Positions 28,679 through 35,405 of a stretch of 64,000 bases of DNA are shown one piece after another. The stretch is from a phage. Made by a program: the position numbers and the translations under genes. Each line of letters opens with the position of its first letter. Position 1 is the first letter of the stretch. The notes under the pieces are model-generated. The model was not told the DNA's origin. It ran no database searches and saw only the letters and a list, made by a program, of their open reading frames with translations. The stretch lies in sequence record PZ026127.1; one strand, 5' to 3'.

Positions 28679-28861
28679 ATGAAAGCTTATTTAGAAACCG
28701 TGGTTATTGGATATAAAGAAGGTGGCGATGTCTCCACCGCAGTGTCCCAAATTGTCCTTGAATTTGAAAATGAAATCGCATTCGCTGATTTTAAAGATAA
28801 TTTCGACCGCTATGAAAAGGGTCCTAAATTTGAAGTATACCGTACGTTGCTACCACTTTAA
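28679..28861 (+). CDS. hypothetical protein (60 aa)
   Basis: ATG 28679 two nt after the ligase stop. Confidence 0.45.
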   Translation: MKAYLETVVIGYKEGGDVSTAVSQIVLEFENEIAFADFKDNFDRYEKGPKFEVYRTLLPL

Positions 28862-28878
28862 GGCCTTCGGGCCTTTTC
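28862..28878 (+). terminator. CUUCGG hairpin terminator
   Basis: GGCCTTCGGGCC then TTTTCT. Confidence 0.6.
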
Positions 28879-28911
28879 TGGCATAAATAAGGTTATTAAA
28901 GAGGAATTATT

Positions 28912-30807
28912 ATGTCCGAACAATTGAATGAGGTATTTGACGGCGCTATAGATTTATCAGCTGTCAATTTAAACCCTAAACTTAAAGTACCGCAGATTTG
29001 GAATATAAAGGCTGAAGGTAATGAGAACCTTGTTGCACGCATGGTTTCATATACTTCTGAAGGTGATACAATCCGCCAAGTTAAACCGGGTGACAAATAC
29101 GTTCATATTATTTTAATGAGCCTATCATCTAAAGGGGCCCCGGCAGAACTCAAAGGTGGTTTAGGTAGTAACCCCATTTCCGCTATTCGTTCTATATTTG
29201 ATACGGTTTATGAACAAGTTAAAAAGCTCCGTATGGATGCCGTTATGTTCCGTTTTCCTACTAAGAAAATGAAAGGTCAGGAAAAAGCTGTACAACGAGT
29301 TCTAGCCAAATTAATAGCTACTAGAGCAGGTGGGCAATTCAAGGTCCTTGATGCCTTGTATCAATATACAGGCAAACATTCATATGTTTTTATCTATCGT
29401 AAAAATAAAAATATAGAATCAATAAACGGTATTCCTAATATTAATCCGGAATTGTATACTAAAGTCGAATCTGAAGTCGGTGATGTGTATGTTTCAAAGA
29501 AAACAGGCGAAGATGTTACCAAATTAGAAGCTATAGCTAAGTCTATAGACGAAATAGAAAAATCACGTTCTGATAAAATGGTTATAACCAAGACTAAGGT
29601 TTCTAAACGGGCCGCTATAAATGCGTTATATTCTACCGCCGAGCCTACAGGATTGAGTAAATTTTCGGCAGAGCACAAAAAAGCTTATGCAGATTATTCT
29701 GCTACTAGTTCCGTTCATTCTTCTGAAGATTCTAAAGAAAGCCAAATAGCTTTAGCCAGTAATAAAATATTAAAAGACGCCTCTAAAGAAATGGCAGAAT
29801 ATTTGGATTATATTTTTAACGGTGTTAATCCATCATTTGAAGTAGACGAGCGCAAACTTAAACTAATTGCTGATATAAAGTTTGCTTTAGAGGCATCAGA
29901 TTCTTTAGATAAATCTAATAGTGTCATAGAGGCTTTAAAATCAGGTAAATCTCATGTAGACATTCTTAGACTAGTCGCTGCGGCCCTTTTAGATGATTCA
30001 GTTAAAGGTACTTGGGCTAGAGAATCTAAAATCAAGGAAGTAATAAAATCCTTAGTAGCAGTTTATACAAAATCTATCCAACCGTTGTTTAAGATATCTG
30101 ATAATCCTAATTTATCCAAACCTCAAGAAGAGGCAGTCAAAAAGTATACTCGTGGCGGCTACAACCATATAAACAACTTTTTGCTAGGTAAAACAGATAC
30201 CACCGATGAAATGATAAAAATGATTGGTGAGTTGGATTCTACATTTGAAAATGGTACAAAACTTCCTAAAGGAACCATAGTGTATCGTTCTCAGATAATG
30301 CCTACCGAAATGGCTTTGAATTCTATAAAACATAAGGTGATGTATCTTCCTATTTTTGCATCAACTTCATTGGCTCCTAATATTTTCGGTGAAATGGGTC
30401 ATGCTCAATCCAACTTAGACCCTGAAGCTCTTTCTAGCGATATAGATAGTAATCTTGAAGACACCATTAAAAGTGCGACCGGAAGTGCTAGAGATACCAT
30501 TAAGCTAGGGCTAATTATTAAAGGTGCTGATAAAATTAAGGTTATTGTGCCCGGTGACTTGGCTAATTGGTCTACAGAAACCGAAGTAATTCTTCCTCGT
30601 GGGGTTATGCTTAAGATTAATAAAGTATACGGTGCTTCCAAGGGACCTATGGGTTCAATTGGTAAATATGTTTTAGTGGAATGTGAAGTTGTAGCTACCG
30701 AGCAAATCACAGAGGAAAATTCATATAGCACCGGATTCTCGTTTGGAAATTATGATAGAATTATGTATGAAGATTCTATGGAAAAATTAGCAAATTTATT
30801 TAAATAG
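28912..30807 (+). CDS. Alt-like ADP-ribosyltransferase paralog 1 (631 aa)
   Basis: N-terminal module shared with the next two ORFs; C-terminal VYRSQ...FASTSL...STETEVILPRG (R / STS / ExE). Confidence 0.8.
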   Translation: MSEQLNEVFDGAIDLSAVNLNPKLKVPQIWNIKAEGNENLVARMVSYTSEGDTIRQVKPGDKYVHIILMSLSSKGAPAELKGGLGSNPISAIRSIFDTVYEQVKKLRMDAVMFRFPTKKMKGQEKAVQRVLAKLIATRAGGQFKVLDALYQYTGKHSYVFIYRKNKNIESINGIPNINPELYTKVESEVGDVYVSKKTGEDVTKLEAIAKSIDEIEKSRSDKMVITKTKVSKRAAINALYSTAEPTGLSKFSAEHKKAYADYSATSSVHSSEDSKESQIALASNKILKDASKEMAEYLDYIFNGVNPSFEVDERKLKLIADIKFALEASDSLDKSNSVIEALKSGKSHVDILRLVAAALLDDSVKGTWARESKIKEVIKSLVAVYTKSIQPLFKISDNPNLSKPQEEAVKKYTRGGYNHINNFLLGKTDTTDEMIKMIGELDSTFENGTKLPKGTIVYRSQIMPTEMALNSIKHKVMYLPIFASTSLAPNIFGEMGHAQSNLDPEALSSDIDSNLEDTIKSATGSARDTIKLGLIIKGADKIKVIVPGDLANWSTETEVILPRGVMLKINKVYGASKGPMGSIGKYVLVECEVVATEQITEENSYSTGFSFGNYDRIMYEDSMEKLANLFK

Positions 30808-30815
30808 GATAGATT

Positions 30816-32897
30816 ATGACCCAATTAAATGAAGTGTTCGAGTCCGAAGGTACACTGCCTGTTGTGAACTTGAACCCAAAACTTAAAGTACCTCAGATTT
30901 GGAAGATTGGAGACGCGGAGTCTCAGTTAGTAGCACGTATGGTATCCTATGCTTCTGAAGGCGATGCTATTAAACAGGTTAAGATGGGTGATAAATATGC
31001 CCACGTTATCCTTATGAGCCTTTCAGCTAAAGGTTCGCCTGCCGAACTTAAAGGCGGCTTAGGCCCTACTCCTGTAGATGCGATTAATACTATTTTTGAT
31101 GTAGTTTATGACCAAGTTAAAAAGCTTCGTATGGATGCCGTGATGTTCCGTTTTCCTACCAAGAAAATGAAAGGTCAAGGCCCTATCGTTCAACGTATTA
31201 TCCAACGTTTGGTAGCACAGAAAACCGGTGGACGTTTTAAAGTGGTTCCGGCTATGTACCAATTTACCGGTAAACATACTTACATCCTGGTAGTCCGTAA
31301 ACAAGCTGATATCGAAGATATCAAAGGTATGCCTGGAATTAATGCTGAATTGTATACTAAGGTAGATTCTGATGTCGGTGAAGTTTATATTTCCAAAAAA
31401 GAAGGTGTGCAGGTTACTAAAGAAACTGCTATTGCTGGCAGTATTGCTAAGGTTGAAGAACGTCGCACTGATAAAATGGTTATAACCAAGACTAAGATTT
31501 CTAGGCGCGCCATTGCAGCAAGCCAATCATTGGAATCTTATCGTAATGAAAGTGAATTGTTTAAGAAATATGAAGCTACTGCAGCGGATTTTAATAAACC
31601 GGCAACAGTTCCATTAATCCCTGAGGCTCAGGAAATGGTTACTAATAACAATTCTCCTGCGGCTAAAAATAAGGTTGCTAATATAGTGGCTGAAGGCACT
31701 GCTGAAGAATTGCATTACGATTATAAAATGTTTCCTCTTCACGGTATAGGTGAAATCCAAGAGAAAATTAAAGAGAAAATTCTTACAGCAATAAAAAACG
31801 AACCTTTGACATCTGTTAAAGCTCTAGAAAAATATGCCTCTGCTATTAATACCGTTTTCGAAGAATACAAAGGTGAATGGCTGGCTATCCATAACAGAAC
31901 TCGTAAAGGCCAACCTGATGACCTTTGGAACGAATTGACAGAGGCCAAGTGGAAAGCAGCCAAGACTAAGTTCATTAAAAAACGTGTATATAGTTTTGCT
32001 GGTGTGGGTGGCGGTATTATGGTTGATATTACTATTGCTCGTGAGGGCTCTAAATATACCCCATCACAAAAGCGCGGAATCAGAGAATATTGTGGTTCAG
32101 GATATACAGACATAAATAATCTTCTTTTAGGACGTTATAATCCTCAGAACTATGAGGTTATGAGCGAAAAAGATATCGAATCTGCAGTTAATAATTTGGA
32201 TTCTGCTTTTGAAAACGGCGACCGTATACCAGAAGGCATCACAGTTTATCGCGCACAGAGTATGACTGCTCCTATATACGAAGCACTAGTTAAAAATAAA
32301 GTGTTCTATTTCAGAAATTTTGTATCTACTTCTTTAACTCCTATCATTTTCGGACGTTTTGGTGTTACCCACGCAGGTATTGGTCTTTTAGAACCTGAAG
32401 TTCGCAATGAATTGACAGTCGATAAAAATGAAGAAGGAATAACTATTAACCCTAATGAAATAAGAGCGTATAAAGAAAACCCTGATTACGTTAAAGTTCA
32501 AATAGGATGGGTAATTGATGGAGCCCATAAAGTTAATGTCGTATATCCAGGAAATCTCGGAATAGCAACTGAAGCCGAAGTTATTCTGCCGCGTGGATTA
32601 ATGGTCAAAGTTAATAAAATAACAGATGCTTCTAATAATGATGGAACAACATCTAGTAATACAAAACTCATCCAAGCTGAAGTTATGACAACAGATGAGC
32701 TTCAAGAATCTGTGGTATATGATGGTGACGTACTAATGGAAACCGGCGAGCTGGTCGTGTATCAAGATGATTTCGATACTTCCGAAAGCCCTGTATCTTT
32801 TGATTCATTTGTTAAATCTACACGGTTTGATGTACTGCCTCTTTTGGCTTCATGCATAGACCTCTATGACATCCCAGAAAAATTCATCCAAGGGTAA
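30816..32897 (+). CDS. alt: Alt ADP-ribosyltransferase (693 aa; closest to T4 Alt)
   Basis: length near T4 Alt (682 aa); VYRAQ...FVSTSL...ATEAEVILPRG; recognised from memory as Alt family. Confidence 0.85.
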   Translation: MTQLNEVFESEGTLPVVNLNPKLKVPQIWKIGDAESQLVARMVSYASEGDAIKQVKMGDKYAHVILMSLSAKGSPAELKGGLGPTPVDAINTIFDVVYDQVKKLRMDAVMFRFPTKKMKGQGPIVQRIIQRLVAQKTGGRFKVVPAMYQFTGKHTYILVVRKQADIEDIKGMPGINAELYTKVDSDVGEVYISKKEGVQVTKETAIAGSIAKVEERRTDKMVITKTKISRRAIAASQSLESYRNESELFKKYEATAADFNKPATVPLIPEAQEMVTNNNSPAAKNKVANIVAEGTAEELHYDYKMFPLHGIGEIQEKIKEKILTAIKNEPLTSVKALEKYASAINTVFEEYKGEWLAIHNRTRKGQPDDLWNELTEAKWKAAKTKFIKKRVYSFAGVGGGIMVDITIAREGSKYTPSQKRGIREYCGSGYTDINNLLLGRYNPQNYEVMSEKDIESAVNNLDSAFENGDRIPEGITVYRAQSMTAPIYEALVKNKVFYFRNFVSTSLTPIIFGRFGVTHAGIGLLEPEVRNELTVDKNEEGITINPNEIRAYKENPDYVKVQIGWVIDGAHKVNVVYPGNLGIATEAEVILPRGLMVKVNKITDASNNDGTTSSNTKLIQAEVMTTDELQESVVYDGDVLMETGELVVYQDDFDTSESPVSFDSFVKSTRFDVLPLLASCIDLYDIPEKFIQG

Positions 32898-32900
32898 ATA

Positions 32901-35024
32901 ATGGAAAATTTAAACGAGGTTTTTGATAGTGATTCCGCTAAAAACTATCCAGTAACAAATCTTAAACCGGGTTCCGGTATTCCACAGATTTTCTCTATCC
33001 AAGCACCAGGTAACGATAACCTGGTTGCTCGCATGGTATCTTATGCGTCTGAAGGCGACGCTATTAAGATGGTTAAGGCGGGCGATAAGTACGTCCATGT
33101 TATCTTAATGAGTTTATCTGCTAAAGGCGCTCCGGCAGAACTCAAGGGTGGGTTGGGTACCGATCCACTCGGTACACTGAACACCATTTTCGATACCATA
33201 TACGAACAAATAAACAAACTTAAAATGGACGCGGTTTTATTCCGTTTCCCTACTAAGAAAATGAAAGGTAAAGGCCCTACCGTTCAGCGCGTATTAGCTC
33301 GTTTGGCTATGGCCCGTACCGGTGGTAAGTTTAAAGTTGTTGACGACATGTTCCAATTCAGCGGAAAACATACCTACGTTCTTTTAGTACGTCGTGGTGC
33401 TAATATTGAAGATATCAAGGGTATGCCTGAAATTAATGCCGATCTTTATACTAAAGTTGAGTCTAAAGTTGGCGAAGTGTATGTTTCTAAGAAAACCGGC
33501 CAGGCCGTAAGTAAGGTCGAAGCAGTAGCGGCATCTATTGCACAAGTTGAAGAGAAACGTACTGATAAGGCTGTCATTACCCGTACTAAGATTTCCCGTC
33601 GTATGGCAGCAGCCGCACAGTATTCTACTGCCGAGCCTGAAACTTTGTCCCCTAAAGAATTGCAGGTTTATAACGAGTTTGAAGCTTCTGTACCGGTTCA
33701 CACGGCTGAAGGCCCTGAGAATGAAGGTATTGAACAGATTAGTCAGAACTTTAAAAAAGGTGCTATTACTAAAATGCGCCAGGCTTCTCAGTTTAAATCT
33801 AAGAGCGAGGACCTTGCCAACTTTAGATACACTATTGCTCTCACACACGCTTTAATGACTGATAGTAAATTTAAACTAAATTATGCTAATAGAGATAAAC
33901 AAGGGTTTGAAATTTACTCTAATAATATGGCATTTTTTAATACAGAAGTCGATAGACTTTTAAGTGGCCTTTCGCAAATCAATACAACCAATAGTCTGGA
34001 TATTATTAAGAAAATTGTTAATAACCTGAGTACCCGTTTTAAGGGTTCCCCTTCAGAGAAAGCATCTAGAATTGCTTTCGCTATGGAAGCCGTTTATAAA
34101 CTGGTTAACGATTCTATTAGTGATGCATATGCTTATTCAGGCGAGCTCATTAAACCTAAGGACCTAACCAAAGACGAAAGCAATGCTATTATTGAATATT
34201 GCGCGGCTGAATATGCTCCTATGAACTTATTCCTTTTAGGTAAACCTGAATCCGAAAACAATACAACGGCTATTAAATTGATTAAGGATTTAGACTCGGC
34301 ATTTACTAAGGGTATTAAACTTCCTAAGGGTACTATTTTGTATCGTGGTCAGGATTTGCCATACAAAATTCTGCGCCATAATATCGATAACAAAACATTT
34401 TACTTTAAGAACTTTGTGTCAGCCTCACTAAAACCTAACATCTTTGGTGAATTTGGTAAAAATTATATGGCCCTCGACAACCAAGCCGTTTTTGTTGGCG
34501 GTGAAGGTTCTTTATCCTCCGCTGATGAGTTGTTTAAATTGGCTAGTGGTAGTTCGTCTGATGTAGGTGAAGTCGATGACGAAGAGGTAGAATGGGAAGA
34601 AGACGAGTTTGGTAATCCAATTGCACCTGAAGGTCCTGCAGATAGAATTGCTGAAATTGGTATGGTTATTCGAGGTGCTGAAGCAGTTAAAGTTATCGCT
34701 CCTGGTGACCTTACAGAATATGCCGAAGAAGCAGAAATTATCCTTCCGCGTGGATTATTGTTGAAGGTTGATAAAGTAGCGGCTTTTGCCATGAATGATA
34801 GAGTATCTCACAAATACCTTATGGAAGCTACCGTAACACCTCCTTCAGAGCTCAGCGAATCTGTTTACGATGGTGACCATTTGATGGAAACTGGTGAAGT
34901 TCGCCTGATGGATGGGTTCAGTCAATTCTTGGTTAATGAATCTGTTTCTGAAAGCAACGAGGCTATGGAAATCCTTGCAGCGTCTTTGGATATCTCTTCT
35001 TTATCAAATAAATTCAAAATGTAG
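32901..35024 (+). CDS. Alt-like ADP-ribosyltransferase paralog 3 (707 aa)
   Basis: shared N-terminal module; C-terminal LYRGQ...FVSASL...AEEAEIILPRG with an acidic insertion. Confidence 0.8.
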   Translation: MENLNEVFDSDSAKNYPVTNLKPGSGIPQIFSIQAPGNDNLVARMVSYASEGDAIKMVKAGDKYVHVILMSLSAKGAPAELKGGLGTDPLGTLNTIFDTIYEQINKLKMDAVLFRFPTKKMKGKGPTVQRVLARLAMARTGGKFKVVDDMFQFSGKHTYVLLVRRGANIEDIKGMPEINADLYTKVESKVGEVYVSKKTGQAVSKVEAVAASIAQVEEKRTDKAVITRTKISRRMAAAAQYSTAEPETLSPKELQVYNEFEASVPVHTAEGPENEGIEQISQNFKKGAITKMRQASQFKSKSEDLANFRYTIALTHALMTDSKFKLNYANRDKQGFEIYSNNMAFFNTEVDRLLSGLSQINTTNSLDIIKKIVNNLSTRFKGSPSEKASRIAFAMEAVYKLVNDSISDAYAYSGELIKPKDLTKDESNAIIEYCAAEYAPMNLFLLGKPESENNTTAIKLIKDLDSAFTKGIKLPKGTILYRGQDLPYKILRHNIDNKTFYFKNFVSASLKPNIFGEFGKNYMALDNQAVFVGGEGSLSSADELFKLASGSSSDVGEVDDEEVEWEEDEFGNPIAPEGPADRIAEIGMVIRGAEAVKVIAPGDLTEYAEEAEIILPRGLLLKVDKVAAFAMNDRVSHKYLMEATVTPPSELSESVYDGDHLMETGEVRLMDGFSQFLVNESVSESNEAMEILAASLDISSLSNKFKM

Positions 35025-35053
35025 TTTACAACACCACAAGGATGTGGTACTAT
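35024..35053 (+). promoter_or_regulatory. early promoter cassette
   Basis: GTTTAC, 18 nt, TACTAT, then ACATGAGGAGAACATT leader. Confidence 0.55.
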
Positions 35054-35081
35054 TACCTTACACAAACATGAGGAGAACATT

Positions 35082-35372
35082 ATGAAATCTGCATTCCGTT
35101 TTAATGGTCAAGAACTGGTAGTTGAAAACGTTATCCCTGCTTCTGAAGAGTTTGACAGTGCAGTGGGTAATGAATTACGTCGAGTTTTCGGTGAAGACAA
35201 ACAGTTTGATATCCGACCTGTTGAGAATTTTTCTTATCCAGAACAAACCGAAAACATTTTTAACGGTGTAGTGACAGGACAACTCGAATCCGAAGCTCCT
35301 ATTTCGGTTACGGTGTTTGTTAAAAAGCAACCACTAATGACCACAGCAGGTTTCATTTCGTTCCGTAAATAA
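35082..35372 (+). CDS. hypothetical protein (96 aa)
   Basis: ORF bracketed by its own early promoter and terminator. Confidence 0.6.
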   Translation: MKSAFRFNGQELVVENVIPASEEFDSAVGNELRRVFGEDKQFDIRPVENFSYPEQTENIFNGVVTGQLESEAPISVTVFVKKQPLMTTAGFISFRK

Positions 35373-35380
35373 ACCCCTAA

Positions 35381-35405
35381 AGGAGAGCATATGCTCTCCT
35401 TTTTT
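35381..35405. terminator. bidirectional rho-independent terminator between convergent genes
   Basis: AGGAGAGCATATGCTCTCCT then TTTTTT; gene 54 stop abuts it on the minus strand. Confidence 0.75.

Follow-up and report, generated by a model that had tools for sequence, protein, structure and literature searches.

Three anciently diverged Alt-family genes, predicted to encode modular ADP-ribosyltransferases, form the alt array of a T4-like phage

Alt is a textbook phage enzyme that is injected into the host together with the DNA. The T4 protein (gpAlt, NP_049811), a head-packaged arginine mono-ADP-ribosyltransferase, counts RNA polymerase alpha and MazF among its targets, and the single Alt copy of T4 is the only one to have been studied so far. 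Three genes of this family, named altA, altB and altC here, lie one after the other at positions 28912-35024 of a 64,000-nucleotide stretch of phage DNA (sequence record PZ026127.1), the whole of which is termed the window below and which comes from a T4-like genome of the genus Dhakavirus. The array is best explained, with good probability, as one late operon of three long-diverged, four-module members of the T4 Alt family, in which a lineage-matched N-terminal (N) module is joined to payloads exchanged between lineages, and whose products most likely have target sets of their own. The evidence on which this explanation is built comprises homology, domain order, catalytic residues, the ADP-ribosyltransferase (ART) fold, cleavage motifs, synteny, purifying selection and the discordant histories of the modules.

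Multi-copy Alt arrays are common and were known before, duplication of Alt having been reported in 2006 for 44RR and RB49 (PMC1524935) and in 2014 for JS98, Bp7, Ac42 and ZZ1 (PMC4177764). The three-gene arrangement is itself known and already annotated in near-identical published phages: over the interval 28912-35024, identity is 98.1% to Escherichia phage LQ5 and 97.7% to WG01 (Dhakavirus), in whose RefSeq record all three open reading frames (ORFs) carry the annotation 'Alt-like RNA polymerase ADP-ribosyltransferase'. All three ORFs of the window are intact and on the plus strand, altA at 28912-30807 (631 amino acids, aa), altB at 30816-32897 (693 aa) and altC at 32901-35024 (707 aa), with gaps of 8 nucleotides (nt) between altA and altB and 3 nt between altB and altC. 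The gene order is the same as in T4, running from DNA ligase (gene 30) through alt.1, the alt genes and alt.-3 to the convergent genes 54, 48 and 29; as in T4, the array is transcribed away from the ligase gene and is flanked by gene 30/alt.1 on one side and alt.-3/gene 54 (baseplate) on the other. Outside the array, the window contains no further Alt-like ART gene at E <1e-3.

Membership of the Alt family is clear for all three copies. PHROG 802 (Alt-like) covers each protein over its full length, aligned from residue 1 (E 1e-207 to 1e-263), and Pfam PF03496 (ADPrib_exo_Tox) is found in the C-terminal third of altA (E 8e-14), altB (4e-36) and altC (3e-17). The N module corresponds to PF26846 (Tevenvirinae_ADPRT), a match precomputed on all close homologues and on P0001, a database protein one residue away from altA (99.8% identical). 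The catalytic residues follow in the expected order, namely R459, S484-T-S486 and E556-x-E558 in altA (VYRSQ, FASTSL and ETEVILPRG), R479, S504-T-S506 and E586-x-E588 in altB (VYRAQ, FVSTSL and EAEVILPRG), and R482, S507-A-S509 and E610-x-E612 in altC (LYRGQ, FVSASL and EAEIILPRG), the serine and both glutamates being invariant across 51 homologues. Structure models give confident ART fold predictions for the ART domains, and this fold with R, S-T-S and [Q/E]-x-E in order is that of the C3/VIP2-like R-S-E clade. The three proteins are Alt-family R-S-E ADP-ribosyltransferases, with their activity predicted from sequence. The PDB holds no solved Alt structure, its sole matches being weak ones of the ART domain to iota-like toxins; a search of NCBIfam returned zero matches, and a structure search of BFVD gave a full-length match to the SP18 homologue only.

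An alignment of 124 family members was used to set the borders of four modules. The N module comprises 231-234 aa and ends in K-[IV]-S-[RK]-R, the centre 166-186 aa, and the ART domain, ending in [L/I]-x-E, 202-233 aa, followed by a tail of 30 aa in altA, 62 aa in altB and 54 aa in altC. In altA, N module, centre, ART domain and tail occupy positions 28912-29610, 29611-30108, 30109-30714 and 30715-30804; in altB, 30816-31508, 31509-32051, 32052-32708 and 32709-32894; and in altC, 32901-33602, 33603-34160, 34161-34859 and 34860-35021. The N module is always basic, with a median isoelectric point of 9.6 and a net charge of +8 to +12, and the ART domain and tail are acidic. The predicted models, made for altA and altC, show an alpha/beta N module followed by a centre of 6-7 bundled helices. 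Relative to RB14 alt.-2, the altC ART domain contains an acidic insertion of ~25 aa between S-x-S and E-x-E.

Motifs for the prohead protease gp21 are present towards both ends of the proteins. The first predicted site lies behind the glutamate of LNEVF in all three copies (after residue 7 in altA), the second behind ITE in altA (after residue 601), LQE in altB (after residue 631) and LSE in altC (after residue 653), so that at the level of sequence motifs the window copies carry gp21-type sites aligned with both cleavage positions of T4 Alt. Among the 124 homologues, [L/I]-x-E is present at the N-terminal site in 121 and at the C-terminal site in 118, and in alignments of 51-52 diverse members both cleavage-motif glutamates are invariant. 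Mass spectrometry has shown that gp21 processes T4 Alt at ITE-6 and LTE-619 (PMC5694885; PMC9026906). The identical module cut made on T4 Alt gives a tail of 63 aa and a mature protein of 68.2 kDa, the very values obtained from that work.

Much of what an earlier note had read from this DNA holds up. Its three co-oriented ORFs agree in coordinates, strand, lengths and gaps; its shared N-terminal module of about 230 aa, with the motifs quoted for it, appears in the alignment; and its C-terminal R / S-T-S / E-x-E module is present in each copy, backed by PF03496. altB can be aligned with T4 Alt along its whole length at 48% identity, the ART fold was recovered by structure prediction, and the alignment of family members delimited a variable segment. 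That segment had been described as a central 200-250 aa, mutually unrelated between the copies. Its variability is indeed high (10-22% identity, depending on the alignment), but it is shorter than claimed, and 'unrelated' is only partly right: in profile comparisons the B centre stands alone among the centre types, whereas the A and C centres are weakly similar in their initial ~57 residues (local E 4e-4 in hhalign) and homology of the A centre to the Alt centres of Proteus and Providencia phages is clear (hhalign probability 98%, E 7e-13). Nor is the centre the only divergent part, as the copies share 62-68% identity in the N module, 34-38% in the ART domain and 10-38% in the tail.

The position at which the histories of the modules part company was located with a bootstrap quartet of altB, altC, RB14 Alt and RB14 alt.-2, each module being analysed on its own with 1000 replicates. 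N modules grouped by genome in 1000/1000 replicates, whereas centre, ART domain and tail each grouped by type in 1000/1000, and the break in evolutionary history is the N/centre junction. The N modules of paralogues are 68% identical within RB14 and likewise within the window (altB versus altC), in contrast to 42-46% between the two genera, with altB and RB14 Alt at 46%. The same holds in comparison with T4, whose Alt N module is 42-45% identical to those of the window and thus less similar to them than they are to each other. The ART domain of altB, on the other hand, shares 94% identity with its counterpart in RB14 Alt and 64% with the one in T4 Alt. Its nucleotide identity to RB14 is 83-96%, with third-position identity of up to 90%, next to an N module that is saturated. 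The history of this payload therefore differs from that of the resident N module, and the sequences point to a fairly recent transfer of the altB payload between genera. Reassortment is seen across the family as well: among the 124 homologues, the altB-type N cluster is combined with 6 centre clusters and 4 ART clusters, and the T4-type payload stands behind 3 different N clusters.

The copies themselves are old. Between copies, identity at the four-fold synonymous sites of the N module is 39-45%, a level read as saturation that argues against any recent duplication or conversion; recent gene conversion as the source of the N-module similarity is ruled out by the same figure. altB is the full-length orthologue of T4 Alt, the 48% identity extending through the centre, and resembles it in genome position, hairpin and late promoter, four-part order, R/STS/ExE residues and both gp21 motifs. 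altA and altC are of other types and only 32-34% identical to T4 Alt. altC is the orthologue of the RB14/T2-type 'alt.-2': its centre occurs in 446 phage records, about 400 of them Tequatrovirus-type (T2, RB14, AR1, PP01 and others; 44-46% identity), where it marks a second Alt gene. RB14 'alt.-2' is an intact 685-aa ORF that starts 3 nt after alt (locus L005, 2808-4865) and shares 49% identity with altC over the entire protein. Like altC in the window, this gene is last in its array, follows a 3-nt gap and ends in KFKM; altC differs from the RB14 protein by its acidic ART insertion. In T4, the second alt copy is interrupted by stop codons, and the two small 'hypothetical' ORFs alt.-1 and alt.-2 (locus L002, 5066-5451) are its broken 5' end, a remnant that both the T4 annotation and PMC1524935 had recognised before. 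The pair of B- and C-type genes is older than the split between Tequatrovirus and Dhakavirus, and T4 is the exception.

The N module occurs at 1746 places in 1202 phage records. The altA centre is rare, being found in 14 phage records, 8 of them LQ5/WG01-like (at least 98.8% identity) and 6 SP18-like (about 49%). altA is 63% identical to alta of SP18 (Gaprivervirus), each being the first gene of its array, and both have short tails (30 and 25 aa) without the motif YDGDxLMETGE. The altA centre profile also matches the centre of Proteus-phage Alts, and altA in this respect resembles the Alt proteins of T4-like phages of Proteus, Providencia and Morganella. In the Morganella phage MP1, an Alt homologue closest to that of Proteus phage Pm5461 has been found in virions by mass spectrometry (PMC5384007).

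Close relatives differ in the content of the array, which reads B-C in JS10, B-X-C in MX01 and A-B-C in the window. Gene X of MX01 (locus L004, 3608-5653), located between the B and C genes, is a hybrid with a C-type N module (91%), a centre (86%) and ART domain (76%) of the SP18 'altb' type, and a B-type tail. Compared with WG01 (locus L001), divergence of the window is patchy: altA differs at 2 sites only and, together with the first 200 nt of altB, is nearly identical, while altB diverges over 31012-32800, where as many as 14% of sites are changed in a 100-nt bin, and the N module of altC over 33012-33311, where 8-23% of sites are changed, the remaining altC again being nearly identical. 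This looks like a mosaic produced by recombination among close relatives. Between such relatives, the ratio of nonsynonymous to synonymous substitution rates (dN/dS) is 0.01-0.11 in every module measured, with 0.00-0.06 in the centres (versus WG01 and JS10) and 0.01-0.05 in the ART domains of altB and altC, indicating strong purifying selection. The diversity of the array is thus old divergence reshuffled by recombination rather than rapid ongoing change, and diversifying selection on the centre through point mutation is ruled out by the centre values.

For these reasons, the history proposed in the earlier note, a triplication with a swapped centre, is wrong even though its family assignment was right. 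The copies are ancient and have orthologues in Tequatrovirus and Gaprivervirus, the unit that moves is centre, ART domain and tail together with the N module alone following the genome, and the family is under constraint in every module measured and not 'diversifying' as supposed. Its premise that T4 carries one alt gene likewise fails, given the decayed second copy of T4 and the C-type centre in its many relatives.

The signals around the array suggest how it may be expressed. A terminator-like hairpin, AAGGCCTTCGGGCCTT, followed by a T run, lies downstream of the alt.1 homologue at 28860-28875 (plus strand); the identical hairpin precedes T4 alt, and a conserved terminator upstream of alt has been described (PMC1524935). 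It is followed by a candidate late promoter, CATAAATA, at 28882-28889 (plus strand), 22 nt ahead of the altA start codon and one mismatch away from the T4-type consensus TATAAATA, which T4 itself has at the equivalent spot after the hairpin, and by a ribosome-binding site, AAAGAGGAA, at 28898-28906 (plus strand). No credible promoter was found before altB or altC. The near-match TTTAAATA was rejected as an altB promoter, as it ends 9 nt before the start codon, a distance too short for a leader. Since no internal promoter is credible, altA, altB and altC are inferred to form one late operon.

Downstream of altC, the region 35024-35402 holds the alt.-3 homologue (35082-35372, plus strand, 96 aa), which lies outside the alt operon and has its own early-type promoter on the plus strand (GTTTACA, 17 nt, TACTAT with TG); a hairpin terminator at 35379-35402 is common to this gene and the convergent gene 54. 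In T4, C-terminal extensions of Alt.-3 lead to escape from the CmdTAC defence (PMC11618068). Elsewhere in the window, GC content reaches 0.458 at 52-54 kb against a background of about 0.39, AT skew falls to -0.157 at 54-56 kb, late-promoter matches cluster on the minus strand at 51-61 kb, and no tRNAs were found.

The N module shows a weak GNAT-like predicted fold, with a conserved L-K-G-G-L-G-x-x-P at a strand-to-helix junction. Profile searches of Pfam and PDB at E up to 10 gave no GNAT sequence match and no sequence-level link to any solved structure, GNAT motif A (Q/R-x-x-G-x-G/A) was not matched, and a literature search on Alt and GNAT found no paper that appears to connect them. As a lead only, and in a rather doubtful reading, the N module is possibly a GNAT-derived domain that would bind a cofactor or packaged DNA; in a stronger version, it might itself be an active acyltransferase, which would make the Alt proteins bifunctional. 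Wherever the module occurs, it is N-terminal: a search of 1.84 billion representatives yielded 71 clusters, all with this placement, and nearly every representative checked has an ART payload, 2 of 10 atypical ones being unclassified. Four odd N-module proteins have no Pfam ART match. Of these, P0172 has a minimal ART domain by eye, and P0173 (metagenome contig L007, 552-3980), a 1142-aa protein encoded directly after a DNA ligase gene, has ~900 aa beyond the N module that match nothing in Pfam or PHROGs; seen by eye, they comprise a divergent stretch resembling an ART and, behind it, a long extension of unassigned sequence. No clear non-ART payload was found behind an Alt N module, P0172 and P0173 being the two inspected out of these four proteins, which also include P0175 and P0177.

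Other ART systems differ from the array in architecture or delivery. T4 ModA and ModB are ART-only proteins of ~200 aa that are made early and not packaged, in contrast to the window copies of 631-707 aa with their additional modules and late-type promoter. C3, VIP2, iota-toxin Ia, Vis and Certhrax are toxins that bacteria secrete and that have delivery domains of a different kind, whereas Alt is delivered via the phage head. The working principle, although nothing beyond it, is reminiscent of polymorphic toxins such as Rhs, CDI and type VI secretion system effectors, which also combine a conserved N-terminal delivery part with a variable C-terminal effector, occur in tandem arrays, exchange payloads between lineages and leave decayed 'orphan' fragments, as T4 alt.-1/-2. 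However, the Alt array is not a polymorphic toxin system: it has no immunity genes and no ORF in the 8- and 3-nt gaps, its payload is nearly always an ART, and its means of delivery is capsid packaging.

By analogy with T4 Alt, of which about 40 copies are packaged per head (PMC5694885; PMC9026906), the alt genes would be transcribed late and their products incorporated into the prohead core, where gp21 would cut behind two motifs, the L-x-E near the N terminus and the [L/I]-x-E closing the ART domain. The trimmed proteins would then be stored in the head, ejected along with the DNA and, right as infection begins, mono-ADP-ribosylate host proteins specifically at arginine. The N module would act as a resident, lineage-matched packaging or DNA-associated adaptor, and centre, ART domain and tail as a type-specific payload exchanged between phage genera; a role of the N module in head incorporation or DNA association fits its within-genome similarity and basic charge. 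What sets the payloads apart is the helical centre, the insertions between S-x-S and E-x-E and the loop just before E-x-E, which reads NWSTETE in altA, GIATEAE in altB and EYAEEAE in altC. In C3-like toxins, the corresponding regions contact the substrate. These differences make different target sets the most likely reason why all three copies are kept. Different host targets for altA, altB and altC are plausible, and injected effectors with possibly different targets are the best functional reading. A bolder version treats the Alt array as an exchangeable effector repertoire in which the N module is a capsid-delivery adaptor and payloads traded between genera each hit a different host protein, possibly one of anti-phage defence in the way that T4 Alt modifies MazF; this is a tentative and rather doubtful proposal. 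If it were true, altA would be a recently spread addition extending the host range of LQ5/WG01-type phages.

Several points count against the explanation by an operon of packaged, four-module enzymes. For the window copies, packaging, cleavage, enzymatic activity and target sets are all extrapolated from T4 Alt, and their late transcription and injection are likewise proposed by analogy. altC has S-A-S in place of S-T-S, the promoter ahead of altA deviates from the consensus, and altA has too few differences from WG01 for a dN/dS estimate. The short altA tail without YDGDxLMETGE suggests that handling of this protein in the prohead may differ. The within-genome similarity of N modules could be due to old gene conversion and not to constraint by head partners, and literature searches found a second or third Alt paralogue only in descriptive mentions of duplication and no experiments.

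Three rival accounts have been weighed. A recent, lineage-specific tandem triplication in which the central 200-250 aa alone was replaced would account for tandem genes with tiny gaps and for N modules so much more similar than the centres. It is nonetheless most improbable, given that synonymous sites of the N modules are saturated, the ART domains have themselves diverged to 34-38% identity, altB and altC have orthologues in Tequatrovirus and altA in Gaprivervirus, every replicate unites centres, ART domains and tails of the same type, and T4 keeps the relic of a second copy. Alternatively, the copies might be redundant, raising the enzyme dose or sharing one target such as RNA polymerase alpha, with their differences due to neutral drift. 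The common domain order, catalytic motifs and operon are consistent with this, as is the growth of T4 without alt (PMC5694885; PMC9026906), but each type has been kept across genera under strong purifying selection, the centre included, arrays gain and lose specific types and not copies of the same type, and the copies differ in the loop before E-x-E and in the insertions behind S-x-S, all of which leaves redundancy unlikely, if less so than triplication.

Finally, one or two of the copies might be non-enzymatic, either head-internal structural or DNA-binding proteins or genes in decay. The decay of the second T4 copy, the S-A-S of altC and the truncated tail of altA could be taken in this sense; all ORFs are intact, however, each copy has R, S-x-S and E-x-E, the ART domains of altB and altC are under the strong constraint described above, and ART folds are confidently predicted, so that the chance of a non-enzymatic copy is very slight. 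The account by a late operon of three old Alt-family members with exchanged payloads thus stays well ahead in probability.

The comparison reveals no new kind of system, and the finding is real but ordinary. Its contribution lies in dividing the proteins into four modules, in telling apart the histories of N module and payload, and in the point that a second copy has been lost from T4. Because of this loss, T4, whose single Alt copy is the one studied, is atypical: by analogy with its Alt, most relatives would inject two Alt types and the phage of the window three. The modular picture also suggests which part of an Alt protein to exchange when probing target specificity and which to retain if a foreign payload is to be packaged.

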